Shown here piece after piece: positions 20,369-38,458 of a stretch of 64,000 bases of DNA. This DNA is from an uncultured Pseudomonadales bacterium. Lineage in GTDB: Bacteria; Patescibacteriota; Microgenomatia; UBA1400; MFAQ01. The stretch is from positions 154 through 64,153 of the forward strand of contig CAZPFY010000001.1 in assembly GCA_964586045.1 (NCBI GenBank), read 5' to 3'. The notes under the pieces were generated by a model, which saw only the letters and a program-made list of their open reading frames with translations, was not told the DNA's origin and did no database searches. The first letter of the stretch is position 1; each line of letters opens with the position of its first letter. A program made the position numbers and the translations under genes.

Positions 20369-21397
20369 ATGATAGATTTTGTAAAAGTATCGATAAGATC
20401 GGGAAAAGGGGGTAATGGCTCGGTGAGTTTTCGTCGGGAAAGATTTATTCCTAAAGGTGGACCAGACGGTGGAGATGGGAGTAAGGGCGGAGATGTTTAT
20501 GTAGAGACAGATGCCAATTTAAATACCCTAGATGTCTTTAATCACAACCAAAAACTGTGGGCGGATAATGGTCAGAACGGAAGAGGAAAAAAGATGTTTG
20601 GATTGAAGGGAAAGGACCTTGTTATCAAGGTTCCTGTTGGTACGGTTTTGAGAATGAAACCACAGATATCAGTTGACAGATCTCAGATCATAGATGGGGA
20701 AACCCTTGCATTGGAAGAGAAAATTTTGGATTTTGATAAGCTGGGGATGAAGGTTTTGGTAGCAAAAGGTGGTAAGGGGGGGAGAGGTAATGTTCACTTT
20801 AAAAGTGCTAGAAATACGACCCCGGTAACGGCTGAGGATGGTGGGCCAAGTGAGAGCTTTGAGGTAGAGATGGAACTAAAGCTGTTGGCAGATGTGGGTT
20901 TGGTGGGCTTGCCTAACGTGGGGAAGTCGACCTTGCTTTCGGCTTTGTCTAACGCTAGACCAAAAGTGGCAGATTATGAATTTACGACTTTGGAGCCAAA
21001 TTTGGGGGTGATGAAAGTTGGAGAAAAATCTTTGGTGATAGCTGACATTCCAGGAATAATTGAAGGGGCAAGTGAAGGAAAGGGTTTGGGGATTCAATTT
21101 TTGAAACACATAGAAAGAACAAAATTGCTTGTTCATTTGGTTTCTGTTTTTGAAAAAAGCCCCGAAGAGGCCTATGGAGATTATGTGGCAATAAGAAGGG
21201 AATTGGAAAGTTTTGGAGAAATATTGATAGACAAGCAAGAAATAGTGGTTTTGAGTAAAATTGATTTGGTCGAGGAAATAAAACTAAAAGAAATGATTGG
21301 TTACTTTAAGAAAAAGAAGGTGTCTGTTTCTGCTTTATCGGTGGCGAATGGAAAAGGTGTTGCAGAGCTAAAAACTAGAATGCTCGACATTCGTTGA
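20369..21397 (+). CDS. obg: GTPase Obg (ObgE/CgtA)
   Basis: The Obg fold N-terminus is MIDFVKVSIRSGKGGNGSVSFRRERFIPKGGPDGGDGSKGGDV. The G domain is ADVGLVGLPNVGKSTLLSALS...DIPGIIEGA. Confidence 0.95.
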   Translation: MIDFVKVSIRSGKGGNGSVSFRRERFIPKGGPDGGDGSKGGDVYVETDANLNTLDVFNHNQKLWADNGQNGRGKKMFGLKGKDLVIKVPVGTVLRMKPQISVDRSQIIDGETLALEEKILDFDKLGMKVLVAKGGKGGRGNVHFKSARNTTPVTAEDGGPSESFEVEMELKLLADVGLVGLPNVGKSTLLSALSNARPKVADYEFTTLEPNLGVMKVGEKSLVIADIPGIIEGASEGKGLGIQFLKHIERTKLLVHLVSVFEKSPEEAYGDYVAIRRELESFGEILIDKQEIVVLSKIDLVEEIKLKEMIGYFKKKKVSVSALSVANGKGVAELKTRMLDIR

Positions 21398-22016
21398 GAT
21401 AAACACCTCTTCGGTTTTTGAGGGTGCAGTCCGGGCAGGTGCTAGGAGGACAAAAACTTGGTCCACAGGTAGGAATGCTGTCCTGGGCAACAATAACACA
21501 AGCTCCGTTTTTGCAACCATAAGATACTTCGCAAAGCTGTTTACCACTACAACCTTTAACTAGGTCGATATAACTCATGTCGGTAGAAGAGACTGCAATG
21601 GTGTTTGGGCAGTAGTAGATATTGTTAGATTTTGGGTCGTTGGTCATTGATAGCGTTGTATATATGGCGTATTTTTGGGGACAACTGGAATCGATGGGGG
21701 TTGTGTAAACAGTATACGGTTCCTTTGTAGCAGGGTCGCATAAAACTTTGTCGAGATAAGGTTGTAGAGCGTTTGATCCGCATTGAGTAAGTACGCTTTT
21801 TTCGGGGTAGCAGCTATGATCGTTGTAGTAATTTTCAAGGGCGGTTTTTAGTTTTGCCAAATTGTCTCTTCGAACTGTATCGTGGCCGCGTAAAAATTGA
21901 GCATGAGGATTGAGACCTATTAATGAGGCAAGTCCCAAAATAACAATTAAGGTAACCACAACCAAAATTTCACCAAGAGTGAAGCCGTTGGGTGTTTTTG
22001 GTTTTGAGTTTTTCAT
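21375..22016 (-). CDS. type IV pilin-like protein (prepilin N-terminal cleavage/methylation domain)
   Basis: The N-terminus KPKTPNGFTLGEILVVVTLIVILGLASL matches the class III signal with G-F-T-L-x-E. The C-terminal half is Cys-rich. It overlaps the obg 3' end convergently by about 22 nt. Confidence 0.7.
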   Translation of the reverse strand: MKNSKPKTPNGFTLGEILVVVTLIVILGLASLIGLNPHAQFLRGHDTVRRDNLAKLKTALENYYNDHSCYPEKSVLTQCGSNALQPYLDKVLCDPATKEPYTVYTTPIDSSCPQKYAIYTTLSMTNDPKSNNIYYCPNTIAVSSTDMSYIDLVKGCSGKQLCEVSYGCKNGACVIVAQDSIPTCGPSFCPPSTCPDCTLKNRRGVYLNECRAF

Positions 22017-22045: not shown

Positions 22046-25000
22046 TTATTTGGTTTGGACCAGCCAGAAATTGAATGAGATTTCGTCTTCTATTGGTTGC
22101 GGAATGGCGATGGTGAAGCCAACATGGCTTTGTTTGGATTTTACGAATAAGACTTGATTGTTGGTGTCGGAAATTGGGGTGATGTAAACCAAAGTATCAT
22201 CGTTTATTTTGGAACTATTTATAAAAATTTCGGAAGAACCTGTTGCAATAGAGGCGGTGCCAATGGTGGAGTTGGAGGATGTTTGACCGGAGATAGTGGA
22301 GTCTAAATTATTTCCGGAAGCGATGACTAATCCGTAAGTGGTAAGCTTGTCAAAGTTAGCTGAACCAGAAGCGTCGACAGAGCCGACAACGTTACCATCC
22401 TGATTGAAAAGTGCTAGGATTTTTGCTGAATCGGTAGCGAGTTCACCTTTACCGACAGCGAGGGTGCCAGAGACAGTAGCGGTACGAGTGTCGAGGTTGT
22501 TGGCAAAAATATTTCCCGTAACGATTAAGTCTCCATCTACTACAATTTGACCATTGGGGTAGAGGGTCATGAGATTTGCAAGTAAGTGGACTGGTTTGTC
22601 CCCGCTTGGTTGGATAAAAAGATCGGTGCCGAAGGAGCTAATAGATTGGCTGAAGATGGAGCCGTTAGCCAGGATGTCGTTTGTGGTCAAAACTTCGATG
22701 TTTAAATTTTTAAATGCCATGTCGGTTGGCAAAGAAGCTGATTCGGTTGCCAGAGATGAAAGCTGAAGGGGATCGTTGGTTGGATTTGTTTCACTATCCA
22801 GGGCGCTAAAAAGACTGTCGTATTGGGAATATTTTTCTTGAATAGAGGCAAAAATTGATGAGGCGGTGGAATATTTTTCGTTTAAAACGTCAAGTTGAGC
22901 TTTTAGTTTGTCGATGGTTTCACTCTTTATATTGTTAGCGTACAAAGTTCCTGAGACGGTGGCGATATTAACCTTTAGCTGATCGATGTCGGCGATTGGA
23001 GTTATTAGTTTTTGTTGAACAGTAAGATTGTCGATTAACAAATTCATAACAATGTTGGAGCCGAGCTTGAGATTGTTAATAATTTCGCTAGCAATTGATG
23101 ATGAGCTAGTTGCATGGTTCTGATTTAATTTTAAAGATATTTGATTGGTAAGAATCGTAATCTCTTCGTTATTGAAGCTTGAAGAAAGAGAAGCGATTTT
23201 GGCATCTAAGCCTTCTATTTGGTTGGCGTAAATTTTGTCTGCGGTGATTGTGTTGGTGACAATACTGTTTGTATTTAATTCGTCAAAATTACCTTGCTTG
23301 GCAAAAACGGTAGAGGCCTTGATTTGTCCTTCTACTATGAGTAGGGGTTGGGTGTTGTCGGAAAGTAAGTTGGGAGAAATGGTTATAGAAGCAGTAGAGG
23401 CCATGGGAGTAAGGAAACTGGTTTCGATGGTGGGAGAAACTAGCTGATTGGTAGAGATTGAACCGGTGATGACTTTGGCAAAAGAGCCAACGGTGTTTAC
23501 AAATCTGCCTGCAGTTTCGTCGAATAGTTCGTTGGTGTTGGAAATTAGGCGATAAACCCGACTGCTAAAAGTGGTTGGGTTGGGGGCGATACCATTGTTA
23601 ATGTGAATGAGAACAACGCCTTTGCCAATGTTGGGAATCCAGTCTTCAAAGGCGGTACCAATTACTTTGTCGTTTGGCATAGCTTTGGTGGCAAAACCAG
23701 GAAGAGGTGAAGAAGTGAGGCTGTCGCCAGCTTTGATATCTTGTGAGGAAGGATCAATTTTTACAGGTATTCTTCCTGCCAAACCAAGAAGTCGGCGGTT
23801 TTCGGCGGTGATTCCTAGCTCTTGTCCTGCTTTAGTGGAAATTGCACCGACTAAATATTGATCATTCGGAGAGCTTGTTTTGCGAAGAATTGGCACTCCA
23901 AACGGATCAGTTTTTCCCGTAATAGCGACTAAATCGCCGGCTTCAATACTTGGATCTTCGACGGTGTACCACTCAGCGAGATCAGCTCCGTAGACAACGG
24001 CGTCTAATCTGATTTGAATTGTTTCTCCGGTTTTGTTGTAAAGGCGGACGGTGTTCATGTCGGTCTGAACAATTTTGAAACCATTGCTCCAATCGAGCTG
24101 AACACTGCGGAGAGTGGGATGGTAGGCCGGATTGGTAGTAGTGAGGATGGCACGATATTGGAAGTATTCGTTGGGGGTAGAGCTTACTGTGGAGCCATCG
24201 GCATTTGTTAAGTATCTGTCGGCGGTAATATTGTCGACGTATAAAGTAGTGTTTGTTGAAGGAAGGGAGATGCGAAGTTTGGTAACCGCGTTGCGATTGG
24301 TCGTATTGATGTCGGTGAGATCCCAGTAGATTTTTTGCCAAGTGTTGGCGGCTTGGATGTAGAAAGTTTTTTCTTGTTCGGTGCCGGTGGATTCGCCAAA
24401 ACCAAATTTGACAAGATTGCCGGAGCTAGTGGCGTAGACCCAAGCAGTGAGGTAGTCGTAGTTGGTAAGGTCTTTGGCGGTAACTGTAGTTTCGGAATAA
24501 CCATTGGGGCTGCCGACTGAAGAAAACTTGGTCATGTTGCCAACGGTTGCCTCATCTTCATCTTCGAAATAGTCTACGTTGCGAGCTACGCCACCATCTG
24601 CTCTGGTTAAGTCAACCATACCCCAGAGAGTGTCGGTGTTCATATCTATGACGTCGAGTTTGTTGGTATTTGCCACGACTGGTTTCCAAGCTTCCCAGGT
24701 GCCATCTATAGAATTGGCAGATTTTCCAGAGCGAGTTTGGAGCTCTATCATGCCGTAAGTGTCGAGGTCGGCAAGCCACTTGATTTTGTTGTAGCCCGTC
24801 GAGTTTGGAGTTGGCATTTCTTCGGAGATGTACATGGAGTAGTTGTAGGATGGGGTTTGGGCGACGGCTGCGGCCGGGCTGGTCGTTCCCGTTAGGGTAG
24901 AGGCGTAGTAAATGGCTACCCTGCCATCTCCACCACTACCCCCTTCGAAATTGGAAAGACCCGCTATTTGTGCACCGCCATTGCTACTGACAAGGCTGGA

Positions 25001-28000
25001 ACCTAAACTTAGTGTATTTCCGAGAATTTTGATAGAGCCACCCGCACCTGCACCGCCTCCACCCTGGGTACTAGCAGCAGTGCCAGTAAGGCTATCGTCA
25101 CCTTTACTGAGAATTGAGCCCGAAACAGAAATAGTATCGCTATTGATAATGACTATGCCACCACCGCCTCCGCCCGCTAGTCCTGAGTAGTATGTACCGG
25201 TAGTGGCTTGACCAGCTCCACCACCGCCTCCGCCCGAACCCAGGTAGAGCTTGCCTAAGCTGGATTCCCCGTAATTACCAGCTCCACCACCACCACCACC
25301 ACCACCGAAACCACTACCCACACTTCCACCACTCGTACCGCTGCCACTTTGGTTGGTATCACCATTGCTAGCGATAGTTGGACCGGTTCCGCCACTTCCC
25401 CCAGCAGCGTAGCCACCCCCACCCCCACCTCCACCATAACCATTGTAGGAAGAGCCGTTGCTGCTCGCGCTTCCTGCACCACCACCACCTCCCGCCCCAG
25501 TAGTTGATGTTCCTACTCCACCAGTGCCGATACCATCCGTCAAATGTCTCCCTCCACCACCACCACCACTATAAACACCGTTTTGGCCTAGATTGTTGGG
25601 TGTTAATGGTGTGCCACCATCTCCGTCGACTCCAGATGTATAGAAAAGACTATGACCAGGGATGGATCTGGTGGTTGTACTTATTGCGCCGGTGCCACCG
25701 GGATATCCTTTGCCTGTAGCATTGATAGAGCCGGCGACAGAGACGGCGCTAATAGCCCGAAAAAAGAGGACACCACCTAAACCAGTTGTGTAGTCATAAG
25801 CGCTTGGGGAGAGGGTGGCACTAGAATCTACAGTGACGCTTGTGTAGTTGGGGACTCTTTGGAGCATAACTTTTTGATTGTTGACGCCGATGCCGAGATT
25901 GGTGTCGTCGCCTGCGCCGTCTCCATAGTACTTACCCTTACTAGTGGTAAAAGTGATTACGTTGCCGGCAAGACTACTAATTCTGAGGGTTTCGTAGTTG
26001 CCAACATTGACGATCGACCCTTGGGTTCCTTGTAGATTTATAAGTAGTATTTCGTCGCCTGTTTTAAGACAACTGGGTGTAGAGGGAATGGTGGAAAGCG
26101 TTGCCGTGGTTGAGGTGAGAGTGTTAACTGAGTAGTTGATAGCATCAGCACAGGTGCGGCCAACAATTGAGTCTGTGCTCAAGACTTTGGTGCCACTAGT
26201 AACCGTACCCGCACCATCGGCACCATTGCCTGGGTCATAGTCGCCAGCTTGGGTAACACCGGTGGCATTACTGGTAATACCGCTATTTGATAAAGCAGAC
26301 AAAGCGGTTTCGGAAACAGTGAGGTGAGAAGAAGAATAATAGTCGGTGGAATTAGCAAGGCGAATACTGCTGGCGTCGATGGTATGGGAAGCACCGTCGG
26401 AGTAGGTGAGTGAGATATTTGAAATACTGGGGGTGGCTTGGCCATTGGAGCTTGTGAGGATGAAGCGGTATTGGAAATAATTTTTGGGAGTAGAGGTGGG
26501 GGCGGTGCCAGAGGCGACAATGAGCTCTTCGGACTGTAAGCTGTCGACATAGACAGTTTGGTTTGGAGACAAGAGAGTGATTCTTAGCTTTGTAATTGCG
26601 TTTTTTGAAGCACTGGCAACATCACTGATGTCCCAATAAACTTTTTGCCAAGTACCAGTAGCGTCGATTTGAATTATTTCTTCTTGTTCGGTAGCAGCGG
26701 ATTCGCCGATGCCAAGTTTGATTTGTCCGGAAGCAGTAGCGTACACCCAAGCGGAGATAAGGTCGAAATTGGTAAGATCTGTACTAGTAATAGTGTCTTC
26801 GGCGTAACCATTTTCAGCTCCGACGGATCCAAGTTTAATACTTTTGTTTGCAGCATTGGTGATATCTTCGTCTTCGAAGTAATTGACGTTGCGAGCTAAG
26901 GTGCCATCGGCAACGGCATTTAAATTTGTAGCTGTCCAGTCGGCCGTTGCATCCATCGCATTTAGATTTTTGATATTCGTAGTGGTGACAACTGGTTTCC
27001 AAGCTTCCCAGCTACCATCAGTAGAGTCGGGGGTGTTGCCTGTTCTGGTTTGGGCTTCGACTTGGCCATAAGTATTTAGGGTTTCGGTGTAAGCAAAACT
27101 ATTTAAGTTAACGGCGCCGGTGGTGTTGATCTCCTTAGAGACGTAGATGCCATAGTAGCCAGACTGGTGAAGATATGGCGAGGTGGGGAAGTCTGGTTCC
27201 GAAGAGTTTGCAGTTAAAGTGTTTTTGTAAGAGACAGCGATACGGCCGACGCCACCAGTACCACCATCAACAGCTGTAGTGTCGCCAGCACCGCCTGCTG
27301 CAGTAATTAAGTCGGTGGTACTGGTGGTTACTGTGTCTGCCACAATTTTTACGGATCCTCCGGCACCACCACCACCCGATCCTGGATAGGTTGCTGTGGC
27401 GGCGGCGCTACCAGCGCCTCCATTACTTTGGATTCCGCCTGTGCTGGTAACCGAAAGAGTGGCGGCTGAGATCATGAGAATTCCACCACCTTTACCACCA
27501 GCACCTCCGTTGCTTGCAACGTATGTAGTAGTTCCCGTATCTCCGGCACCACCACCAGAGCCACCAGAGCCAAAATATGCTTTGTCTAAGTAGGTGTCAC
27601 CGTAGGTTCCACCACCACCACCACCACCAGCGTAAGCAGGGCCAGTGGTGGTGGTCCAGGCAGAAGTACCACCGTTTCCACTGGTTACCCCGCTTCCATT
27701 GACACCATCGCTAGTTGGAGTGTTGCCAGATTTTCCTCCATTTCCAATTGTTCCGTAACCACCACCAGCACCACCACCACCATACCCATAACCCGAAGCT
27801 CCGGTTGCGGCTCCGGCACTACCACCACCACCACCAGCGCCACCAATGGAAGAGCCGGCAATATTGGCATTGTAAAGAGTTGCGGCATTTACACCTCCAC
27901 CACCACCGCCACCACAGATACCGACTGAACCAACTGGATTATTGTCGTAATCTGCACCGCCACCGCCACCATTTGCGTTGCAGTATGACTCACCTCCATC

Positions 28001-31000
28001 GCTAGGATTGTTGCTTATTCCGCCCGTGCCACCGTTGTAGCCGGCAGAGTTTGTGTTGACAGTAGTTCCGGTGGGAACAGTTACGGTGCCGCTAGCGCGG
28101 AAGAACATAACACCACCTTTGGGAGCGGTCCAGACTGAGGCGGTAAAGTCAGTTCCGGCATTGGAGAGAGTAACGTCGGTGTAATTGGGAACACGTTGGA
28201 GCATGACACGTTGATTGGTGGTGGCGGTACCAAGATTGGTGTCGTTGCCTGGATCATCGCCGTAGGTTTTATTTTTGGCTGTTGTAAAAGTAATGGTTGA
28301 GGTAGAGACAGAAGCAATTCTTAAAGTTTCGTAGTTGCCAACATTTAAATATTTTGTAGAAGTACCCTGAAGATTGATAAGAAGGACTTCATCGCCGGCG
28401 GATAAACAGCCGGTGGATGGGGTAGTGGAAAGGGTAGCAGTCGTGGGAGTGAGAGCGGTTACTGAATAATTGACAGCGTCTCCACCATCGGCGCAAGAGC
28501 GACCAGTAATCGAATTGGCGGTATTGATGTTGGTGTCAGTAGTGATAGCGATGGCACCATCAGAACCGGTACCATAAACATAAGTGCTACTGAGGGCAAT
28601 ATTGGTAGTTTTGAGTTTGTTGGTTGATGACGAAGTGGTATTTACCATAGCCAGATCCTGGTTGGTGGTTGTAGTCCAGTCAGAGATTTTTTTCCAAAGT
28701 GAAGTCACTGTATCGTAGAACCAACCGGTAAGAGAAAGGTCATTTGTGTTTTGATTGTGAGCAATTTCAACGTAACCACCACTTAAAGTTGCCGATTGAG
28801 TGGAGTAAGCGGTCATATCCATGGCAAGGCGGTGCCAGACAGAGTCTTGGCCATACATGAAGAGACTGCCGGTGTTGCCAATGGTGTGAACGTTGTTTAG
28901 ATTTCCAGAAATGGTGGCGCTGTTGTAGTAAATAGATCCAGCAACGCCGGTGGGGATAGCGGTTAAACTTTGGAGGGTAATAGTGCCGGAGTCATTGATG
29001 CGGAATTCGTCGCCACCAGTTGAATTCGTATTAAATGAGAGATACGTAGTTCCAGCGTCACTGATTGTTGATGAGCCAATTAAAGCTGTACCGGTAGTAC
29101 CATTACCAATTGTCAAGGCTGGGTTGGCGGTACCATCTATGGTTAGGGTACTAGAAATTTTAGCGTCTCCATTGACATAAAATTCCATATTGGATGGCAT
29201 CGAATTGGTTGAATCTCCAACTCTTAGATTACTAGTTACATTCCATTGGGTCCCTGCGGTTCCTGTAAGTTGGCGATTGGCAATACTAATTTGTTCGACA
29301 CCCAAGTGGTTGTTGATACCTTGGCTTAGAAATAGATTTTTCCAAGCTGTGCCACTAATGCCCAAAGTTGTTTCATCGTTTGCTCCTGGAACCAGATCGC
29401 CACTGTTTAGGATTTTAAGAAAAGTTAATAAGCCAGCATCACCACCCTGAGAAGTGGCAAAAGATAAATCAGCTCCGTTGAGAACGTTAATGGTTGGACT
29501 TGCTCCTCGGAAAGTAAGAGATCCTGAAGTGGAAGCATCTCCGGCTACATCAAGTTTTGAGGTTGGGGTGGTTGTACCTATTCCAATGTTGCCGGTGCCA
29601 TTGGGGTTGAGGAGAATGTTACCGGTGGTATTGTAGGTGCTGGAATTTCCGAGAGTTAAAGTTTGGCGGCGGGTTGTTCCCAAAGTTCCATTGCCGGTGA
29701 GGTAGGTTGTTCCGGCGATACTGGCAACTGGGGTGCCAAGATTGTTGTTTAGAAAAGAAAAGTTGGCACTGAGTGTTGACTGGCCACCGACGAGTAAATC
29801 AAGGGTAGAGTTTTTGGGGTAGATGGCCCCGTTGCTTGAAAGCCAATTTTCGGCAATGTTTTGGTTAGTTATTTCAGTGTCGAGATCTTTGAGGACGCCT
29901 TGAACAGTGAGAGAGTTGCTGTTTGAAAATTCATCGAAAACACCGATTAAGTAAGCACCACTGTCGTTGTTGGCAGTAGATTCGGCAAGGGTGGTGGTGC
30001 CACCAAAGATTAAATTGGCGGCGGAATTGATTTGAAGGCTGCTGGTATTGGATATGTATACGTTGCCTCCTGCGGACTGAAGGCTGAGGTTGCCAGCCAC
30101 ATCGCTAATGGAGTGGGCAACGCCATTGATCATGTTAATGGCGCCAAGATTACTAATATTAAATTTGGTGATACCAGAGGCTGAAGCACTGAAGAGTGAT
30201 CCTGTGCCGTTTTGATTTACAGTGAGTGCTGAAGTAACAGCAGAACCGGTTGCGGTATTGATGCTAGTACGGCCATCTGCTAAAACCCAAAACTTTGCAG
30301 ATTCAGTTGCCCCGGAAGAAAGTAGAATGAGTTTGCCGCTACCGGTGGCGATATCATTACCAATATATCCTGACAATAGAGAACCAGTTGTCAAATTTGC
30401 ATTTGTAGTTCTAAAAGTGTCTTCGGTAGTAGTGCCGCCAATTGCTAAAATTTGGCCGGACCCAATAGCGTCTGGTTGAATAACAATGTCTCCACCAGAA
30501 TTGGTGGCTGTTGTTAAAGAAATACTTTGGCCCTTGAGATTAAAATTTCCTGATGTTGAAACGATGGATGGTGAACTGGCGGCGATATTAAGATTGCCGG
30601 AGTTGTCAATTACGGGGACAGTGTTGATAGTTGCAGATGCTGACGCAGGATACCCCTGGAGGGTTTCGGAATTGAGGGCGTAGCCGACGGTGGCAATCTG
30701 TTGTCTGGGGGTAAGGGTTTCGGCGCCGACAGTAACTGCTAGGTAAACATCGCGATTATCACTAAAGACAGATTGGGGAATTTCACTGCCACAAACGCTG
30801 TCGCCTATGAGACTGTTAAAAACACCGTCGGAGTCCGGGGTAACAGAACAAGTACCGGTGGTATATAGTTGGCTGCCGGCGGTAAGATGATTCCAAAGTT
30901 TGAAATTGACATTGACGGCAGTGTTAATTGGAGTTCCAGATGAATCGGAGAGTCTGCCCTGGAAAGAAAGTTGTCTGCGGGGGGCGGTTAGAGAGGTGGC

Positions 31001-31891
31001 GGCTGAGCTGGGTTTGGCTTGTTTGATGATTTGGTTGTAGCCCAAAATGCCCATGGTGGTGGTAGCGATTACAAGCAAGGCGAGATGGAAGTAGGGAGTA
31101 AAAGGAAGGGCATTGTACTTGTGGTAAAAAACTGCCAAACGGCTTTTGGAGGGATTCTGAGGGTTTTTGGGTTTGGGAATAAGGCGATTGAGCCAGGCTA
31201 AGGGAGTAATTTTGGCTTCGGTTACGGTAATTTCAAAAGGATCCTTGGGAATTAGACTGCGGTTAAAACAAAAGTGAGTAAGCTTTTTAATAGATGATTG
31301 TCGTCTGCTGATAACAGAAGAGCTGGCGCGGGTTAGTTTTAGATAAGCAATGTAACTAGCTAATTGTTCGGTACTTAAAACTTGTTCGAGGTGGCTAGCG
31401 TTAAAAGGAGTTTGATTGGCAATCCAAGAAAAATAGTGATAAAGATCTGAAAGATAGTTTTTGACGGTAGAATGAGTTTTCTTTTCGTTTATTAATTGTT
31501 GTTTGAATTGTTCAAGAATTTTTTTGCTTGAAAGGTCCTTATTGTTGTTTGCATTGTTTGATGTATTTGGAGTTGGTTCGGATAAAGTTTCTATTTTGGT
31601 GATTTGATACTTGATGTTTAAGAAATTGGATAGTCTTCTGATGGAAGCAAGTCTGCGATTGGTGGTTGCGGGTGGTGTGAGAGTAGAGGATTGTTCCTGA
31701 CTGTATTTGCTGATGTATATTGATAGGTTTTGAAATACTTCGGTAAGATTAAACTGCTTTTGAGATTCCAAAAAGCGAAGAAAGTGCCTAACATCACTAA
31801 GGTAGTTTTTTATGGAAACAGCTGAAAGCCCAGACTCAATAAGAAATGAAGTGAAGAGCTTTAGGATTTCGGTATTGTTGGGCAGGTTCAT
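22046..31891 (-). CDS. giant (3281 aa) surface protein: two tandem integrase core-binding-like N-terminal domains, TM anchor, Gly-rich beta-helix-like regions, internal ~750-aa tandem duplication, C-terminal fibre-like region
   Basis: Uninterrupted 9.8-kb ORF. The two core-binding-like motifs are SIKNYLSDVRHFLRFL and TVKNYLSDLYHYFSWI. The TM is FHLALLVIATTTMGILGY. There are long GGGGG/GGAGG tracts and duplicated modules (ETLRIASVSTSTITFTT... / ETLRISSLAGNVITFTT..., and YFEDEDITN... / YFEDEDEATV...). Confidence 0.85.
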   Translation of the reverse strand: MNLPNNTEILKLFTSFLIESGLSAVSIKNYLSDVRHFLRFLESQKQFNLTEVFQNLSIYISKYSQEQSSTLTPPATTNRRLASIRRLSNFLNIKYQITKIETLSEPTPNTSNNANNNKDLSSKKILEQFKQQLINEKKTHSTVKNYLSDLYHYFSWIANQTPFNASHLEQVLSTEQLASYIAYLKLTRASSSVISRRQSSIKKLTHFCFNRSLIPKDPFEITVTEAKITPLAWLNRLIPKPKNPQNPSKSRLAVFYHKYNALPFTPYFHLALLVIATTTMGILGYNQIIKQAKPSSAATSLTAPRRQLSFQGRLSDSSGTPINTAVNVNFKLWNHLTAGSQLYTTGTCSVTPDSDGVFNSLIGDSVCGSEIPQSVFSDNRDVYLAVTVGAETLTPRQQIATVGYALNSETLQGYPASASATINTVPVIDNSGNLNIAASSPSIVSTSGNFNLKGQSISLTTATNSGGDIVIQPDAIGSGQILAIGGTTTEDTFRTTNANLTTGSLLSGYIGNDIATGSGKLILLSSGATESAKFWVLADGRTSINTATGSAVTSALTVNQNGTGSLFSASASGITKFNISNLGAINMINGVAHSISDVAGNLSLQSAGGNVYISNTSSLQINSAANLIFGGTTTLAESTANNDSGAYLIGVFDEFSNSNSLTVQGVLKDLDTEITNQNIAENWLSSNGAIYPKNSTLDLLVGGQSTLSANFSFLNNNLGTPVASIAGTTYLTGNGTLGTTRRQTLTLGNSSTYNTTGNILLNPNGTGNIGIGTTTPTSKLDVAGDASTSGSLTFRGASPTINVLNGADLSFATSQGGDAGLLTFLKILNSGDLVPGANDETTLGISGTAWKNLFLSQGINNHLGVEQISIANRQLTGTAGTQWNVTSNLRVGDSTNSMPSNMEFYVNGDAKISSTLTIDGTANPALTIGNGTTGTALIGSSTISDAGTTYLSFNTNSTGGDEFRINDSGTITLQSLTAIPTGVAGSIYYNSATISGNLNNVHTIGNTGSLFMYGQDSVWHRLAMDMTAYSTQSATLSGGYVEIAHNQNTNDLSLTGWFYDTVTSLWKKISDWTTTTNQDLAMVNTTSSSTNKLKTTNIALSSTYVYGTGSDGAIAITTDTNINTANSITGRSCADGGDAVNYSVTALTPTTATLSTTPSTGCLSAGDEVLLINLQGTSTKYLNVGNYETLRIASVSTSTITFTTAKNKTYGDDPGNDTNLGTATTNQRVMLQRVPNYTDVTLSNAGTDFTASVWTAPKGGVMFFRASGTVTVPTGTTVNTNSAGYNGGTGGISNNPSDGGESYCNANGGGGGADYDNNPVGSVGICGGGGGGGVNAATLYNANIAGSSIGGAGGGGGSAGAATGASGYGYGGGGAGGGYGTIGNGGKSGNTPTSDGVNGSGVTSGNGGTSAWTTTTGPAYAGGGGGGGTYGDTYLDKAYFGSGGSGGGAGDTGTTTYVASNGGAGGKGGGILMISAATLSVTSTGGIQSNGGAGSAAATATYPGSGGGGAGGSVKIVADTVTTSTTDLITAAGGAGDTTAVDGGTGGVGRIAVSYKNTLTANSSEPDFPTSPYLHQSGYYGIYVSKEINTTGAVNLNSFAYTETLNTYGQVEAQTRTGNTPDSTDGSWEAWKPVVTTTNIKNLNAMDATADWTATNLNAVADGTLARNVNYFEDEDITNAANKSIKLGSVGAENGYAEDTITSTDLTNFDLISAWVYATASGQIKLGIGESAATEQEEIIQIDATGTWQKVYWDISDVASASKNAITKLRITLLSPNQTVYVDSLQSEELIVASGTAPTSTPKNYFQYRFILTSSNGQATPSISNISLTYSDGASHTIDASSIRLANSTDYYSSSHLTVSETALSALSNSGITSNATGVTQAGDYDPGNGADGAGTVTSGTKVLSTDSIVGRTCADAINYSVNTLTSTTATLSTIPSTPSCLKTGDEILLINLQGTQGSIVNVGNYETLRISSLAGNVITFTTSKGKYYGDGAGDDTNLGIGVNNQKVMLQRVPNYTSVTVDSSATLSPSAYDYTTGLGGVLFFRAISAVSVAGSINATGKGYPGGTGAISTTTRSIPGHSLFYTSGVDGDGGTPLTPNNLGQNGVYSGGGGGGRHLTDGIGTGGVGTSTTGAGGGGGAGSASSNGSSYNGYGGGGGGGGYAAGGSGGTGPTIASNGDTNQSGSGTSGGSVGSGFGGGGGGGGAGNYGESSLGKLYLGSGGGGGGAGQATTGTYYSGLAGGGGGGIVIINSDTISVSGSILSKGDDSLTGTAASTQGGGGAGAGGSIKILGNTLSLGSSLVSSNGGAQIAGLSNFEGGSGGDGRVAIYYASTLTGTTSPAAAVAQTPSYNYSMYISEEMPTPNSTGYNKIKWLADLDTYGMIELQTRSGKSANSIDGTWEAWKPVVANTNKLDVIDMNTDTLWGMVDLTRADGGVARNVDYFEDEDEATVGNMTKFSSVGSPNGYSETTVTAKDLTNYDYLTAWVYATSSGNLVKFGFGESTGTEQEKTFYIQAANTWQKIYWDLTDINTTNRNAVTKLRISLPSTNTTLYVDNITADRYLTNADGSTVSSTPNEYFQYRAILTTTNPAYHPTLRSVQLDWSNGFKIVQTDMNTVRLYNKTGETIQIRLDAVVYGADLAEWYTVEDPSIEAGDLVAITGKTDPFGVPILRKTSSPNDQYLVGAISTKAGQELGITAENRRLLGLAGRIPVKIDPSSQDIKAGDSLTSSPLPGFATKAMPNDKVIGTAFEDWIPNIGKGVVLIHINNGIAPNPTTFSSRVYRLISNTNELFDETAGRFVNTVGSFAKVITGSISTNQLVSPTIETSFLTPMASTASITISPNLLSDNTQPLLIVEGQIKASTVFAKQGNFDELNTNSIVTNTITADKIYANQIEGLDAKIASLSSSFNNEEITILTNQISLKLNQNHATSSSSIASEIINNLKLGSNIVMNLLIDNLTVQQKLITPIADIDQLKVNIATVSGTLYANNIKSETIDKLKAQLDVLNEKYSTASSIFASIQEKYSQYDSLFSALDSETNPTNDPLQLSSLATESASLPTDMAFKNLNIEVLTTNDILANGSIFSQSISSFGTDLFIQPSGDKPVHLLANLMTLYPNGQIVVDGDLIVTGNIFANNLDTRTATVSGTLAVGKGELATDSAKILALFNQDGNVVGSVDASGSANFDKLTTYGLVIASGNNLDSTISGQTSSNSTIGTASIATGSSEIFINSSKINDDTLVYITPISDTNNQVLFVKSKQSHVGFTIAIPQPIEDEISFNFWLVQTK
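24000..28550. repeat. approximately 2.3-kb tandem duplication (two copies) within the second giant gene, including Gly-codon (GGN) rich tracts
   Basis: Two homologous ~750-aa protein modules with matching order of motifs. The plus strand shows CCACCACC runs at about 25.0-25.7 kb and 27.3-28.0 kb. The boundaries are approximate. Confidence 0.55.
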
Positions 31892-32471: not shown

Positions 32472-34145
32472 TTAGGATTTGCTACCTAGTTTAGGGTAAA
32501 TGTATTCGGAAAAGGTGTATTGAAGCGAGAGGTAGAAGTAGACAAGGAGATAGCTGTTTGGAAAGAAGTATAGGCCAATAGAGGAACTGACTATCGCAGT
32601 AATGAGAGGAATTAGTTTGATGGAGTAGAAGTAACCTTGAAGCTCTTCTTTTGCCCCTAAAAACCTTTTGGGAGATGGTGATAGACAGACATCATTTAAG
32701 ATATTGCTGGGTAGAATTTGATTTTTCCAGGTATATCCTGTTTTCTTTAAAGTGATAAAAGATTTGTTTGGTAGACGGGAAGGAAAGAAAATATTTCCCT
32801 TAATGTCACTTACAGTGCGATATACTTTTTTATTTAATTTGTCTGGGTTATACAGTTCGATAAAAGTAAATGGTGTTGTTGAGACGCTTTTTCTTTTTAA
32901 GAAAGGAAACCCGAGCGTAAAGATAAAGCTAAGAAAATTACTCAAGTTTGCGTTAACTGCGATGCTTGTAATAACGAGATGTATAGGTAGGCCGAGACAG
33001 AGGAAGAAGAGAAGGATGTAAATACCACCATTGAGACCTTTCTTTTGAGAAATTATTTTTTGTGGTGGTAGGGAAGGGGCTGGTGGGGTTTTGGCTAGAT
33101 AAGGAGTGGGGGTTATGAGAGTAGAGAGCTCTGAGGGTGGTTTAAGGGTTTCGGTTACGGGCAATAACTCTCCTGAGTCCGTAGCAGTGTTTTCAAGATA
33201 TGGATTGTAGCCCTCTGGGAGTGTTTCTGGTTCTACGAGAATATAATCACTCTGTGATTCTTGGGCGGGTGCTTCGGGAATATATGTTGGAGTAATGGTC
33301 AGTAAACTTGTTGGTTCTAGAGATGGTCCTGGTTCACCTGGTGTTGAGGTGTACAGCAGGTAAAATGGGGGGAATATTGTGGAGTTGCTTGTGGCATCAG
33401 TTGCCGAGAGTTGAATGGTGTATGTAACCCCTGGAATTAGGTTCATAAACTGCTTTTCCCAGTTTCCGTCTGTGGAGTTTGTAATCCATGATTGAGTAAC
33501 GCATTCCGAAGGAGCATTTGTGGGACAAATAAGACTTACCTGAAGATTGGAGTTAGCTTCTACTTTGCCACCAATTAAAGCATTTTCGGTATCAACAAAG
33601 AGATATCTGTTTGGTTCATCTGGTATTGTGGTGGGATTGGTAGTGTCCCAGTTGTATTCAGTTTGGTTGACCTTAGTAAGAGAGATAAAGGGGGAAATGG
33701 TGTCGATATAAAAGTTCCAATTCCCTGTGGTTGCGTTTTGTCCGACGTTGTCGTATACAGCAACTTTCCAGGTATGATAACCCTCCGATGGACTTTGCTT
33801 TAGGGTTACGTAGAAGTAATTTCCTGATGAACTAGCGGTATAAAAATAATAGTCTTGAAAAACAATAGAGTCGGATATTGAGGCCGCAAAAACTACGTTG
33901 TCTATATATAAATCATAGTGGTGTAAATTTAGAGGGTTGGGGGTTGGTCTGAGCCAGATGAATTTAATTAGGCCACTGTTTGTAGCGAAGTTGTTTGGTG
34001 GGGCTACAAGGCTGGGGGGGTAGAAATTGGTGGAGGCGACGCTGGCAGAGACCTTAGAATTGCTACTTGTAGGGTTGGCGGCGTTGGCAAAGTTAACCTT
34101 TAGAAAAATTATGACTAATAGGGCGGCGATAATTTTTCGACCCAT
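32472..34145 (-). CDS. secreted/membrane-anchored surface protein (signal peptide, Ig/fn3-like N-region, Pro/Thr-rich linker, C-terminal TM segments)
   Basis: 557 aa. Signal MGRKIIAALLVIIFLKVNFANA, a beta-rich region, a PTP-rich linker, and hydrophobic helices at about aa 370-400 and 510-545. Confidence 0.55.
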   Translation of the reverse strand: MGRKIIAALLVIIFLKVNFANAANPTSSNSKVSASVASTNFYPPSLVAPPNNFATNSGLIKFIWLRPTPNPLNLHHYDLYIDNVVFAASISDSIVFQDYYFYTASSSGNYFYVTLKQSPSEGYHTWKVAVYDNVGQNATTGNWNFYIDTISPFISLTKVNQTEYNWDTTNPTTIPDEPNRYLFVDTENALIGGKVEANSNLQVSLICPTNAPSECVTQSWITNSTDGNWEKQFMNLIPGVTYTIQLSATDATSNSTIFPPFYLLYTSTPGEPGPSLEPTSLLTITPTYIPEAPAQESQSDYILVEPETLPEGYNPYLENTATDSGELLPVTETLKPPSELSTLITPTPYLAKTPPAPSLPPQKIISQKKGLNGGIYILLFFLCLGLPIHLVITSIAVNANLSNFLSFIFTLGFPFLKRKSVSTTPFTFIELYNPDKLNKKVYRTVSDIKGNIFFPSRLPNKSFITLKKTGYTWKNQILPSNILNDVCLSPSPKRFLGAKEELQGYFYSIKLIPLITAIVSSSIGLYFFPNSYLLVYFYLSLQYTFSEYIYPKLGSKS

Positions 34146-34150
34146 GAGTG

Positions 34151-35110
34151 TTATTTCCTTTCCAAGATATGGATTTCCTTTTGAAGTTCTCGAACTTCTT
34201 TTTCGAGTTCGTCTTGGTGCCTTTTGCTGCGTTTGTTAAGCAAGATGATGACTGTTAGAGCTGAGATTAGGGCTACAAGTGAGTAAATGACTAGACGGAT
34301 TGGAAAAAGCCAAAAGAAAATTGTTGCGCTCAAGACACTGTCTTGACTGCCGTAGATAAGATTGAGTTCTGCTTTGTATTTTCCATAACCCCATTTTTGA
34401 TTCCAGGCGGCGGAAATGAGCTTGGTATTGTCCGGGAAAATGTTTCCGAGGTCCAAAGGAATTCTGGATACTTCTTTGTTAAATAAATCGGTAATGGTTA
34501 TTGATCCTTTTGGTTGAATATGAATATCAGAAGTATTTTCGATGGTTCCTGTAAACTCGATTGGTCCTTTTTCGGTGAATTTTGGAGAAGTAAAAGAGGT
34601 GATTGTTGCTTTTTCGTTTATTTTTCCTTTTATGGTGAGATAAATTAGACTACCAACTCGTTGACCGATGATGGTAGCTGTTTTTTTTAGTTCCCCTGGT
34701 TTTATTTCGGCGTTGGGCATGTAAGTTACCATGGCATAATGACCACCTGGCAATGCAGAGTGTGGTACTCGAATAATGATTTCGATGTTTTGAGTGGCTT
34801 TTGAGTCGACAGGAATGAGCTTGGGAGCACTGATCCATTTGCGAAGCGACCATTTACTGGTGATGTTTTCGGAAATTGGAATTGGGGTGCCACTAAGATC
34901 ATCTACGATAAAATCATTTACAAAAACAGTATAGTTTTGTGAGATTTCGGAGTCGTTTCTGACTTTTAGGGTAGCTCTTATAGTTTCGCCCGGCTTGGCT
35001 TCGATTTGAAGTCGGGGTGGAATGGCGGTGATGGTTGATTCGGCAAAAGTTGGAGTGGAAAATAAAAATAAAAAGAGAGAAAAAATTAAGATGAGATTTA
35101 TTTTTTTCAT
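34151..35110 (-). CDS. DUF916/DUF3324-like cell-surface protein (signal peptide, beta-sandwich, C-terminal TM and charged tail)
   Basis: 319 aa. Signal peptide, then PPRLQIEAKPGETIRATLKVRNDSEISQNYTVFV, as in the DUF916 N-region. C-terminal TM FFWLFPIRLVIYSLVALISALTVIILL followed by a KRSKRHQDELEKE tail. Paralogous to 36567..37559. Confidence 0.5.
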   Translation of the reverse strand: MKKINLILIFSLFLFLFSTPTFAESTITAIPPRLQIEAKPGETIRATLKVRNDSEISQNYTVFVNDFIVDDLSGTPIPISENITSKWSLRKWISAPKLIPVDSKATQNIEIIIRVPHSALPGGHYAMVTYMPNAEIKPGELKKTATIIGQRVGSLIYLTIKGKINEKATITSFTSPKFTEKGPIEFTGTIENTSDIHIQPKGSITITDLFNKEVSRIPLDLGNIFPDNTKLISAAWNQKWGYGKYKAELNLIYGSQDSVLSATIFFWLFPIRLVIYSLVALISALTVIILLNKRSKRHQDELEKEVRELQKEIHILERK

Positions 35111-36538: not shown

Positions 36539-36566
36539 TATATATTTAGATTACTACACTATCGCT

Positions 36567-37559
36567 TTAATTATCAACTACCTGATTTTTGTTTGTAACT
36601 TTAGATATAATTTTCAGTAGGACGAAAGATATAAAAATGGTGGCACCAGATTTGAATGGGAAGAAAAAGATATCAATAGAATTGCTGGTATTTGTGTTTT
36701 CTGATTTGACGTTAAAGCTAAGTGTATGCAAGCCAACTATTCTTAGCGTTGGAGAAAAGAAAAAGGGTTTTTCGTTGGAAGAGATAAGTGTTCGAGAAGA
36801 CTTGGAAATGACATATTGAGGAAGTATACCTTGAAGAAAAAGAACCTCGGAGTTTTTTTTGTTAGTTAATTTAAAGGTACCTTTGGTTTCGGTTAGGGAT
36901 GGTCCCTCGTTGGTAGCGATTGCGGTTACAGTAATGGGGGTAAGGTTGTCAGCATAATAGCGACGACCAATTTTGACAAAACTACCCGAAGTGATGGTTA
37001 TTTTTTCAATTTTTAAAATGGTGTTGGGATTTATTTCTGGAGTTATAGAAATAAGAAGATTGGCGCCAATTGAGGAACCAATACTAATATTTTTTTGATC
37101 TCCGCTTATTGAGTTATCGTAGGTTGAGAATAGTAAGGTGGTGTAAAGATCTTCGGCATTAGCGGTTTCGGGTACAGAAAGGCTGACCACTATTTGTTGC
37201 TTATTTTTGGCTTTTAGTAAAAATGGTTCGTCAAACTTTATTTCTGAGTTGGAGAGGTTGAAGTATTTTAACCAGGAAGCACTTGCTTTGATGTCAATGG
37301 TGGGATTGCCATTGTTGTCAGCTTTGTTGAAGGGGATGACTCTAACAACAAGATATTTGTCAGTGTTTTCGATGTTTTCAATAGTAAAACTTTTGGTAAT
37401 TGATTTACCAGGTTTTATTTGAACTCGAACAAGGGGTGGATCGAGAGAGAGGCCGACTGGCGAGGCTTGTGTGGGAGTAGCAACTGCGAATAAACAAAAT
37501 ATTATTACGATGCCTGACTTGACTAGTAATTTAGCAAATAAAATATTTTTCGTCTTCAT
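36567..37559 (-). CDS. DUF916/DUF3324-like cell-surface protein (second copy)
   Basis: 330 aa. Signal peptide, then PPLVRVQIKPGKSITKSFTIENIENTDKYLVVRVIPF, similar to the 34151..35110 N-region. C-terminal TM ATIFISFVLLKIISKV. Confidence 0.5.
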   Translation of the reverse strand: MKTKNILFAKLLVKSGIVIIFCLFAVATPTQASPVGLSLDPPLVRVQIKPGKSITKSFTIENIENTDKYLVVRVIPFNKADNNGNPTIDIKASASWLKYFNLSNSEIKFDEPFLLKAKNKQQIVVSLSVPETANAEDLYTTLLFSTYDNSISGDQKNISIGSSIGANLLISITPEINPNTILKIEKITITSGSFVKIGRRYYADNLTPITVTAIATNEGPSLTETKGTFKLTNKKNSEVLFLQGILPQYVISKSSRTLISSNEKPFFFSPTLRIVGLHTLSFNVKSENTNTSNSIDIFFFPFKSGATIFISFVLLKIISKVTNKNQVVDN

Positions 37560-37560
37560 A

Positions 37561-38430: not shown

Positions 38431-38458
38431 AACCCGAAGAGATTAACAATTATTTTAT

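Follow-up and report, generated by a model that had tools for sequence, protein, structure and literature searches.

Two ancient, strongly diverged tandem supermodules in a giant, putatively membrane-anchored surface protein of a Patescibacteria bacterium

The giant gene examined here lies in a stretch of 64,000 nucleotides (the window) and carries a supermodule of about 750-780 aa twice in tandem, the two units being ancient, strongly diverged copies that stem neither from a recent event nor from an assembly error (Table 1). On the whole we think it probable that they form part of a glycan-recognising fibre, a giant surface protein anchored at its N-terminus in the membrane of an uncultured, ultra-small Patescibacteria (CPR; Microgenomatia-like) bacterium. 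The fibre would extend outwards from the cell and bear along its length two non-identical heads, each made of an NG and a CBM-like domain, which would recognise glycans on the surface of a host cell or substrate, and the divergence of the two copies may broaden or strengthen binding. The likely role of the protein is recognition of host-surface glycans; host attachment has been proposed as a task of the giant surface proteins found in CPR bacteria (PMC8080830).

Table 1. Features of the giant gene and its surroundings (window positions; aa, residues of the giant protein)
Feature	Position	Strand	Residues	Basis or remark
Giant gene 2, membrane-anchored surface fibre-like protein (putative)	22046..31891	-	3281 aa	ORF listing, translation
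Two tandem integrase-type SAM-like (core-binding) domains	31307..31861	-	aa 11-195	Pfam Phage_int_SAM_1, NCBIfam
Single moderately hydrophobic segment, presumed membrane anchor	31037..31108	-	aa ~262-285, FHLALLVIATTTMGILGY	Kyte-Doolittle
Bdellovibrio MAT fibre N-terminal-like segment	30800..31000	-	aa 298-364	NCBIfam NF053851 Bdello_MAT_N
Unit 1 of tandem supermodule	26240..28582	-	aa 1104-1884	Motif positions, global alignment with unit 2, family HMMs
Unit 1 N-subdomain, small, beta-barrel-like	28106..28582	-	aa 1104-1262	Conserved Cys pair C1133/C1162
Unit 1 Gly-rich region, continuous with N-subdomain	27212..28105	-	aa 1263-1560	34% Gly; predicted folded, beta-solenoid-like
Unit 1 C1, beta-strand-rich	26912..27211	-	aa 1561-1660	HMM E 2e-32; AF2
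Unit 1 C2, CBM4-like jelly-roll (predicted)	26492..26911	-	aa 1661-1800	Foldseek, C2 profile
Unit 1 C3 (YFQYR...)	26327..26491	-	aa 1801-1855	HMM E 7e-19
Unit 2 of tandem supermodule	24002..26239	-	aa 1885-2630	Motif positions, global alignment, family HMMs
Unit 2 N	25766-26239	-		Family HMM
Unit 2 Gly	24902-25765	-		Family HMM
Unit 2 C1	24602-24901	-		Family HMM
Unit 2 C2	24182-24601	-		Family HMM
Unit 2 C3	24002-24181	-		Family HMM
(GGT)7 run, unit 1 ((CCA)7 on + strand)	27609..27629			TRF; unit 2 counterpart 25284-25306
His-rich antisense ORF	27715..28005	+	96 aa	Inside unit 1 Gly tract; ORF listing
Pro-rich antisense ORF	27396..27593	+		Inside Gly tract; ORF listing
His-rich antisense ORF	25504..25719	+		Inside Gly tract; ORF listing
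Pro-rich antisense ORF	24912..25190	+		Inside Gly tract; ORF listing
Six-gene Pam-like pilus operon	32472..39199	-		Directly upstream of giant gene, same strand; NCBIfam, synteny
ORF with prepilin/pseudopilin-type N-terminus	21375..22016	-	213 aa	Just downstream of giant gene; NCBIfam GspG E 7e-6

The tandem internal repeat is confirmed. A preliminary description of this DNA had reported two consecutive modules of about 750 aa with identical motif order, and all the motifs that it quoted are present in the translation of the gene: the first pair (TALTPTT...LINLQGT in unit 1, NTLTSTT...LINLQGT in unit 2) at aa 1145 and 1923, ETLRI at aa 1188 and 1967, VMLQRVPNYT at aa 1229 and 2008, YFEDED at aa 1671 and 2441, AWVYAT at aa 1714 and 2483, and TKLRI at aa 1767 and 2537. 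The tandem period of about 2.3 kb was also borne out (offsets of 770-779 aa, in-register DNA repeats 2310-2337 nt apart), and the limits given, 28550..24000, were right as to location but somewhat too narrow (about 28582..24002). Similarity between the first 190 aa of the units is far above chance (BLASTP E 1e-45), and the family HMMs match both units at E 1e-19 to 1e-74 per sub-domain, with no match elsewhere in the window.

The same description had taken the duplication to be recent, with an assembly expansion as the other possibility, and the unit to be a likely present-day recombination hotspot. The tandem arrangement and motif order on which this was based are real, short (GGT)7 runs do occur at homologous sites of both units, and near-identical inter-unit tracts are seen in some relatives. 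However, unit 1 and unit 2 share only 47% of their amino acids and 55% of their nucleotides in a global alignment, with a third-position identity of 40%, and at conserved non-Gly residues the fourfold-degenerate sites match in 35.3% of cases, vs 35.1% expected from codon usage, which means that they are saturated. By sub-domain, the identity of unit 2 to unit 1 is 58% for N, 42% for Gly, 34% for C1, 51% for C2 and 41% for C3, and the best inter-unit blastn segment reaches only 67% over 308 nt. Identity of each unit to those from Collierbacteria, Woesebacteria and further genomes is 57-59%, vs 49% between the siblings, and in the NJ tree the two never pair as sisters. A recent origin is refuted by these values, and the whole reading appears hardly credible to us.

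Since the longest exact inter-unit match is 22 nt, at the homologous poly-Gly sites aa 1421/2196 and derived from (GGT)7 runs, assembly collapse or expansion is no concern, and the two-unit layout recurs in the independently assembled relatives L002, L004 and L012. A hotspot in the giant gene is likewise unlikely, identity of about 21-22 nt being found only at the (GGT)7 sites. The expected size variation by recombination stands in part: unit copy number does differ among relatives, but a hotspot in this gene is not indicated. In some relatives the units share near-identical tracts (99.8% over 1587 nt in L008, 90% over 1920 nt in L004, 88% over 1977 nt in L052), and therefore unit duplication, inter-unit recombination or gene conversion is a family property, yet without a recent event in the giant gene. 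A comparison of copy number among relatives found the N-Gly-C1-C2-C3 order, in 1, 2 or 3 units, within giant ORFs from many Patescibacteria and from one genome recorded as TM6. The N-subdomain matches 841 clusters in a library of 1.84 billion proteins, a single protein of the wider family carrying as many as 5 copies, and homologues of NG include Myxococcales proteins. Collierbacteria (L002) and Woesebacteria (L017) have full-length relatives of the giant protein, 53-57% identical over the segment that matches best, and an identical protein is carried by ENA contig ERZ5996431 NODE_234.

The unit is a conserved supermodule in which an NG domain is followed by a predicted CBM4-like jelly-roll, flanked by two short segments rich in beta strands (AF2 model of unit 1 in full, pLDDT 82.5). 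NG, for which Pfam holds no model, is modelled as a small beta-barrel-like subdomain joined to a Gly-rich beta-solenoid (pLDDT 92, pTM 0.93). The N-subdomain (pLDDT 92-99), with 55-68% identity in more than 100 proteins, gives Foldseek matches to beta-barrels of ~95 aa, e.g. in chains of F1/V1-ATPase and in the tail tube of a phage. In C1, beta strands are predicted at unit residues 476-541 of the whole-unit model. C2, recognised by the motif series YFEDED...AWVYAT...WQKVYWD...TKLRI, was assigned the Foldseek matches in the PDB to the CBM16/11/30/4/29 families (probability 1.0, target TM 0.4-0.6) from the aligned length and a weak profile match to Rhodothermus CBM4-2 (1k42), which is marginal at E 0.07. 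A low-confidence linker of ~30 aa (pLDDT < 50 at unit residues 741-777) joins C3 of unit 1 to unit 2.

These folds also allow an enzymatic reading, in which each NG would be a glycan-degrading, depolymerase- or lyase-like beta-helix and the CBM-like domain its targeting module, the protein being an array of enzymes tethered to the surface and directed against host envelope polysaccharide, and not a pure adhesin. The top Foldseek matches of NG are tailspike depolymerases (phi297 gp61, LKA1 gp49, AP22 gp54, KP34p57 and P560; E 4e-5 to 8e-3, probability up to 1.0), the acidic/polar residues D8, D35, D64, E85, Q124, Q129 and R130 of the N-subdomain are nearly invariant, and a catalytic beta-helix combined with a CBM is a classical layout of carbohydrate-active enzymes. 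We regard such an array as a serious but clearly less probable alternative to a glycan-recognising fibre.

Gly-rich regions had been noted within each module and are found at aa 1275-1560 (34% Gly) and aa 2060-2330 (37% Gly), about half of the Gly codons being GGT, with runs of (GGT)7-8. The His-/Pro-rich antisense ORFs had been ascribed to these tracts, correctly so, since they sit inside them, opposite GGT/GGC/GGA Gly codons; they are presumably low-complexity, non-coding by-products. The tracts could be taken for disordered, elastic spacers whose length is free to drift by slippage, given their Gly content, poly-G runs of 5-8, trinucleotide (GGT)n runs, the little regular secondary structure assigned by DSSP and a length of 237 to 319 aa among 47 units of the genome collection. 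Against this, tract pLDDT is 76-98 and N and Gly are modelled as one body, many Gly positions are conserved at >= 90% in 113 sequences, the tract HMM gives a specific match behind each N-subdomain tested, and mean pairwise identity (49%) is like that of the adjoining folded domains. Spacers are accordingly improbable, and for the tracts the models predict a folded, beta-solenoid-like structure in place of a disordered linker, whose architecture may consist of beta-solenoid turns or of polyglycine-II helices.

In regard to location, the SAM-like pair at the N-terminus (Phage_int_SAM_1, E 1e-10, two stretches; NCBIfam XerD/XerC N-terminal regions also match there) is presumed to be cytoplasmic, and no recombinase catalytic domain follows it in the giant protein. 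The hydrophobic segment that may serve as anchor has a Kyte-Doolittle maximum over 18 residues of 1.63, under the threshold of 1.8 first tried. Of the nine Cys, eight come after it, grouped as four close pairs inside sub-domains, and the MAT_N-like segment scores 31.6 bits (E 1.2e-7), under the cut-off of 60. The lone hydrophobic segment after an N-terminal region of 260 aa, the Cys pairs and the MAT_N-like segment together suggest, from sequence features, that the giant protein is extracellular.

The genomic context is cellular and not phage. Around the giant gene lie Obg, a SIMPL-family protein, ComEA/ComEC and the Pam-like pilus operon; two tRNA-Ala genes are found farther off in the window, and the arrangement from the giant gene to Obg is syntenic across CPR genomes. 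In the Pam-like operon there are matches to PamT (E 9e-13) and to the C domain of the Pam pilin (E 3e-4), both under the NCBIfam cut-offs, and two proteins resemble PamC/PamD in having a signal peptide and a C-terminal TM helix; L002 and L017 show the cluster in synteny with the giant gene. The pseudopilin-like ORF, with a hydrophobic segment at its aa 9-39, is kept downstream in L002, L017, L004 and L055. A fibre in the phage sense is not supported by these surroundings. A phage or prophage tail fibre could find support in the weak fold matches to tailspikes and in the MAT_N-like segment, MAT fibres being phage-like; but beside the cellular neighbours and synteny, the PHROG search gave nothing better than E 1.6e-3, to a family of unknown function, NG was found in no more than 4 contigs among 2.9 million viral ones, and tail fibres are not built with a SAM-like pair ahead of a membrane segment. 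We therefore consider a tail fibre very improbable.

Among known folds, C2 matches CBMs of families 4/16/11/30 at a sequence identity of no more than 10-17%, and none of the Pfam CBM models gives a match. The Gly tract, like the ALK/LTK polyglycine-II domain, Pfam Gly_rich_2 (PF21722) and the Obg fold, has long poly-Gly runs that are predicted to be folded without DSSP secondary structure, and its profile weakly matches the Obg fold (MTG2, E 0.03). With tapirins, the TPS domains of HMW1/EtpA/FHA and autotransporter passengers, the NG domain (472 aa) aligns over only about a quarter of its length. These beta-helical adhesins have no sequence similarity to NG, which differs from them in a Gly-rich stretch of ~190 aa with almost no DSSP structure and in its beta-barrel cap; the secretion route differs too, because an outer membrane, a TPS system and an autotransporter barrel are all lacking. 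Both N-subdomains match part of the N-terminal region of Myxococcus AgmC (NCBIfam NF047640, AgmC_N; E 3e-9 and 4e-7), and at 29-36 bits, far under the 275-bit cut-off, this indicates a shared domain only and not orthology.

The MAT fibres of Bdellovibrio (Caulton et al. 2024, PMC10769870) are likewise surface fibres of small bacteria living on other bacteria, built from beta-helix segments and from modular binding domains that can be swapped, and their N-terminal model is the one matched, below cut-off, just after the anchor of the giant protein. The latter differs in its far larger size and its presumed N-terminal cytoplasmic region with a TM anchor, and its variable units are internal tandem supermodules, vs the C-terminal tip in MAT; a Pfam search found no S74 domain in it. 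Finally, a "tail fibre-like protein" is reported to be consistently co-localised with the operons of Pam, a donor-strand-exchange pilus of CPR bacteria (Troman et al. 2026, bioRxiv 10.64898/2026.03.03.709456). That study only names the neighbour, without the domains, the NG+CBM supermodule or the copy-number variation described here. The giant gene, which is directly 3' of a six-gene cluster for PamT-like, Pam-pilin-like and chaperone-like proteins with C-terminal TM helices and is syntenic in Microgenomatia relatives, probably corresponds to this "tail fibre-like protein".

The preliminary description of the second giant gene (giant gene 2) reported two consecutive modules with the same motif order, and the tandem repeat is real, since each of the quoted motifs occurs twice in the translation of this 9,846-nt minus-strand ORF, at an offset of 770-779 aa. 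BLASTP of the whole giant protein against itself returned the identity match alone, so the units had to be aligned with each other explicitly. A global alignment of aa 1100-1880 with aa 1881-2660 gave 351 identical residues in 750 aligned positions (47%), and the first ~190 aa of unit 1 (U1, aa 1104-1884) were 56% identical to those of unit 2 (U2, aa 1885-2630) by BLASTP (E 1e-45). Sub-domain HMMs built from 47 related units matched every one of the five sub-regions in either copy (E 1e-19 to 1e-74), with the order unchanged, namely the N-subdomain, the glycine-rich region (Gly), C1, C2 and C3; both copies are thereby full instances of one supermodule, NG-C1-C2-C3, where NG denotes N-subdomain plus Gly. 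These HMMs found no further match elsewhere in the window, giant gene 1 included, and a third N-subdomain stretch at aa 2832-2889 was rejected as not significant (E 0.21). At the DNA level the in-register segments are short (96, 48 and 30 nt, with 71, 79 and 90% identity, respectively) and are spaced by 2310-2337 nt.

Features of the window that bear on giant gene 2 and its surroundings
Feature	Coordinates	Strand	Remark
Giant gene 1	9271-19608	-	3445 aa
Pseudopilin-like ORF	21375-22016	-	follows giant gene 2
Giant gene 2	22046..31891	-	3281 aa
Outer limits of the unit pair	about 28582..24002	-	U1 and U2, junction at about 26240
His-rich antisense ORFs	27715..28005, 25504..25719	opposite to giant gene 2	inside the glycine tracts
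Pro-rich antisense ORFs	24912..25190, 27396..27593	opposite to giant gene 2	inside the glycine tracts
Two tandem integrase-type core-binding (SAM-like) domains	31307-31861	-	N-terminus of the giant protein
Pam-like six-gene cluster	32472-39199	-	weak NCBIfam Pam matches
PamC/PamD-like genes	34151-35110, 36567-37559	-	signal peptide and C-terminal TM helix
Pam pilin C domain gene	35111-36538	-	NCBIfam E 3e-4, below cut-off
PamT-like gene	37561-38430	-	NCBIfam PamT E 9e-13, below cut-off
ComEA-like and ComEC-like genes	39459-40058, 40060-41178	+	DNA-uptake genes, divergent beside the Pam-like operon

The duplication had been described as recent, a view that the comparison of the two copies refutes. 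Over their aligned codons, U1 and U2 share 55% of nucleotides and 40% of third positions, and at the Ala, Thr, Val and Pro residues conserved between them the fourfold-degenerate third base agrees at 30 of 85 sites (35.3%). Codon usage by itself would give 35.1%, which means that synonymous sites are saturated. The copies are not each other's closest relatives either. When 47 units from the window and related loci (L-numbers) were aligned with the glycine tract omitted, U1 and U2 were 49% identical, and each was 57-59% identical to units of L002 (Collierbacteria), L004, L005 (Gottesmanbacteria) and L017 (Woesebacteria). Between U1 and U2, N is 58% identical, Gly 42%, C1 34%, C2 51% and C3 41%, and none of these values exceeds its family-wide mean (N 62, Gly 49, C1 47, C2 51 and C3 49%). 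In the NJ tree U1 clustered with the final units of L004, L005 and L002 (63% bootstrap) and U2, with weak support, with the last units of other proteins; since the deep nodes were weakly supported (6-63%), we used the tree solely for the observation that U1 and U2 were never sisters. An assembly artefact is not supported, since collapse or expansion by the assembler is not plausible for units that are merely 55% identical; the longest exact DNA match between them is 22 nt, a (GGT)7 run at homologous poly-Gly positions (27609-27629 and 25284-25306), and the same tandem layout occurs in independently assembled relatives, among them L012, whose record lists it as a complete genome. This is a real but ancient duplication, and it needs no rescue by long reads.

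Scans with the whole protein recovered 48 loci in GTDB species genomes and 63 in JGI metagenomes, and some loci are present in both collections. The best relatives reached 57% (Woesebacteria) and 53% (Collierbacteria) identity in the best segment, and none in either collection exceeded 57%. The N-Gly-C1-C2-C3 order was seen in 69 ORFs of the related loci, and the supermodule is also present in Saccharibacteria-labelled loci (L011, L028, L035 and L042). Among giant ORFs complete within their locus, the full unit was found once in 15, twice in 15 and three times in 12. The DNA similarity between units differs widely among relatives, from 99.8% over 1587 nt in L008 through 90% over 1920 nt in L004, 88% over 1977 nt in L052 and 73% over 1162 nt in L002 to 67% over 308 nt, the best blastn segment between U1 and U2, and this spread indicates that unit duplication or gene conversion happens in the family, provided that the MAG assemblies are correct. 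The proposal that the repeat is a hotspot for recombinational size variation is thus partly borne out, by copy-number change and inter-unit conversion at the level of the family, but not in this gene, whose two copies have diverged further than those of every other example examined. The near-identical stretches of L008 (13514-15100 and 15800-17386) and the 90% identical stretches of L004 (14636-16534 and 16964-18865) lie in adjacent units and cover N+Gly+C1, the remainder of each unit being diverged, a pattern that stems either from mosaic gene conversion across the two units or from an artefact of MAG assembly. Conversion tracts of this kind suggest one route by which specificity in host-glycan recognition could diversify. 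As a separate matter, the GTDB representative MAGs of L003, L004, L006, L013, L015, L019, L022, L040 and L041 carry clear giant-protein homologues under record titles reading "uncultured Gammaproteobacteria" or "Pseudomonadales", which look like mislabels; among those checked, L004 has Pam-like genes and L006 has Obg and ComEA-like neighbours.

A search with U1 found 252 proteins, and one with C1-C3 alone found 3, a figure that reflects the sensitivity limit of the word-indexed search. The N-subdomain, the first ~155 aa of the unit (consensus GRSCADGGDAVNYSV...GDEVLLINLQGT...NVGNYET...NQRVMLQRVPNYT), is 55-68% identical across more than 100 proteins of Patescibacteria, Chloroflexota, Planctomycetes and Myxococcales, whose architectures vary (pilin N-termini, LamG, DUF2341, Stig1, MerR HTH). 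When 1.84 billion cluster representatives were searched exhaustively with phmmer, 841 clusters had this subdomain; many of the proteins are giant, a single one carrying as many as 5 copies, and the same glycine-rich region always comes next. For the units, neither PHROGs nor Pfam with a threshold as loose as E <= 1 was informative, and neither the N-subdomain nor the Gly region is modelled in Pfam; phmmer of U1 against PDB sequences gave a spurious PsaF match alone, and literature searches on AgmC and on CPR glycine-rich giant proteins yielded nothing relevant. The only NCBIfam match is to the N-terminal model of AgmC (NF047640), which scored the N-subdomains at 36.4 and 29.3 bits where the cut-off is 275, and this indicates a shared domain and nothing more.

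AlphaFold2, run on a 113-sequence alignment, modelled N+Gly (472 aa, aa 1104-1575) as one compact body (pLDDT 92.3, pTM 0.93) in which the Gly-rich stretch has high confidence and almost no DSSP secondary structure, and is followed by three ~11-residue strands ~40 residues apart. At many positions of the stretch, 90% or more of the sequences share the glycine. Foldseek matched N+Gly to tailspike depolymerases at E 4e-5, yet with a TM of about 0.14, and also to ~95-residue beta-barrels that presumably correspond to the N-subdomain of the model. A depolymerase-like role of NG is the main rival to the proposed glycan-recognising fibre. Considered together, the model confidence, the Gly conservation and the Foldseek results point to a glycine tract that is predicted to be a folded, beta-solenoid-like part of a domain without a close solved relative, with polyglycine-II helices as the alternative architecture. 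A more speculative reading is that NG may be a fold class of its own, whose conserved poly-Gly runs would build a structural lattice.

The glycine tracts themselves (aa 1275-1560 and 2060-2330) are real; they contain 34-37% Gly, with GGT making up about half of the Gly codons, and hold (GGT)7-8 runs. The His- and Pro-rich ORFs on the other strand sit opposite the tracts and are by-products of the glycine codons, as the preliminary description had correctly explained. An RTX-like or collagen-like identity was rejected because the repeat arrays are absent (GGxGxD occurs just twice, in isolation, and Gly-X-Y is nowhere repeated 4 or more times in a row). Pfam Gly_rich_2 (PF21722; hhalign probability 0.2%) and the ALK-type Gly_rich (PF12810) were rejected for want of a profile match, and the tract gave no match to ALK or LTK. 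On the + strand of the window (1-64000) the GC skew lies between about +0.16 and +0.41 in almost all 2-kb windows, whichever way the genes point, an unusually strong and uniform asymmetry that falls to about 0.01-0.04 at 24-28 kb alone, where GGN codons of the minus strand contribute C to the + strand.

For the C-terminal half of the unit, modelled within an AlphaFold2 prediction of the whole unit (pLDDT 82.5), Foldseek gave matches to many carbohydrate-binding modules (CBMs), with probability 1.0 to CBM16, 11, 30, 4 and 29. Its C2 segment (YFEDED...AWVYAT...WQKVYWD...TKLRI), with the short beta-strand segments C1 and C3 on either side, showed a marginal profile match to Rhodothermus CBM4-2 (1k42), which is in the Foldseek list too, and it is the probable seat of the predicted CBM4-like beta-jelly-roll.

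The SAM-like domains at the start of the giant protein do not make it a tyrosine recombinase of the XerC/D type, a candidate that was rejected since these N-terminal domains alone match (aa 8-222), without a catalytic domain. They are followed by the one moderately hydrophobic segment of the protein (aa ~262-285), the presumed membrane anchor, and then by ~3000 aa of non-recombinase sequence, which is beta-rich and has all its Cys in four close pairs within sub-domains, a pairing that, judged from the sequence, is consistent with an extracellular location. A segment of it next to the presumed anchor weakly resembles the N-terminal domain of Bdellovibrio MAT fibres (NF053851; PMC10769870) at 31.6 bits and E 1.2e-7, below the NCBIfam cut-off of 60. 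N-terminal DNA-binding-type modules are recurrent on large surface proteins of Patescibacteria, the NG-bearing P0055, P0015, P0062 and P0085 having at their start either SAM-like domains or a MerR-type HTH domain, single or doubled. In many relatives a second giant ORF lies directly after the supermodule-bearing one. The giant gene 1 protein has no Pfam match and no NG or C1-C3 modules, and is hydrophobic at its N-terminus (aa 5-26) and near its C-terminus (aa 3107-3128).

The window is cellular, with genes for Obg GTPase, two tRNA-Ala, an M23/LysM peptidase and ComEA/ComEC. The six same-strand genes directly upstream of giant gene 2 had no Pfam match, and from their sequences the cluster looks like a divergent operon of the Pam pilus, which is CPR-specific and assembled by donor-strand exchange. 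PamC and PamD are the chaperones of that system, its Microgenomatia homologues are only about 21% similar, and pam operons consistently co-localise with a "tail fibre-like protein" (bioRxiv 10.64898/2026.03.03.709456), a class of which giant gene 2 is a plausible candidate member. The synteny of the Pam-like cluster and giant gene with the pseudopilin-like ORF and Obg is shared by Collierbacteria (L002) and Woesebacteria (L017). The adjacency of ComEA/ComEC to the operon is likewise conserved in L002 and L017, and several more of the related loci have homologues of both genes, though placed elsewhere. The word "fibre" is not supported in the phage sense: the cellular, syntenic neighbourhood, the lack of a meaningful PHROG match and the presence of NG in just 4 viral contigs speak against a tail fibre or tailspike, and a phage origin of giant gene 2 is unlikely. 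Those contigs (L113-L116, from the IMG/VR viral collection, one of them 170 kb) carry an NG-domain relative at 34-50% identity, and may be either genuine phages of CPR-like hosts or cellular fragments that were misclassified.

CPR bacteria rely on attachment to host cells, and to our knowledge the molecules with which they recognise their hosts are largely unknown. From the domain architecture, the Pam-linked context and the precedent of CPR giant membrane proteins, which are thought to mediate host recognition (PMC8080830), we infer that the giant protein is a surface fibre carrying two non-identical NG+CBM heads, and that these would recognise host or substrate glycans. It is improbable, in our estimation, that the protein is instead a membrane-spanning one-component device coupling host contact to a DNA-related event in the cytoplasm, in which the extracellular NG+CBM heads would act through the single TM segment on two tandem cytoplasmic domains of DNA-binding type (integrase core-binding, SAM-like). 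Related to this idea, other NG-carrying Patescibacteria proteins begin with two MerR-type HTH domains, and the locus adjoins ComEA/ComEC and the Pam-like pilus operon. If it were true, contact with the host surface would be signalled to gene regulation or to the handling of incoming DNA, as in a ToxR-like tethered regulator.

Our result is mostly corrective for the duplication as it was first described. More useful is the definition of a conserved ~750-aa supermodule that combines the NG domain with a CBM4-like domain and offers a concrete, expressible candidate for host-glycan recognition. It is the core, variable in copy number, of giant surface proteins whose genes lie next to the recently described Pam pilus operon of CPR bacteria. 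The giant protein takes its place among the modular giant proteins of the surface or adhesin type, which are already known, and is built from a conserved domain without a Pfam model or a close solved-structure match.
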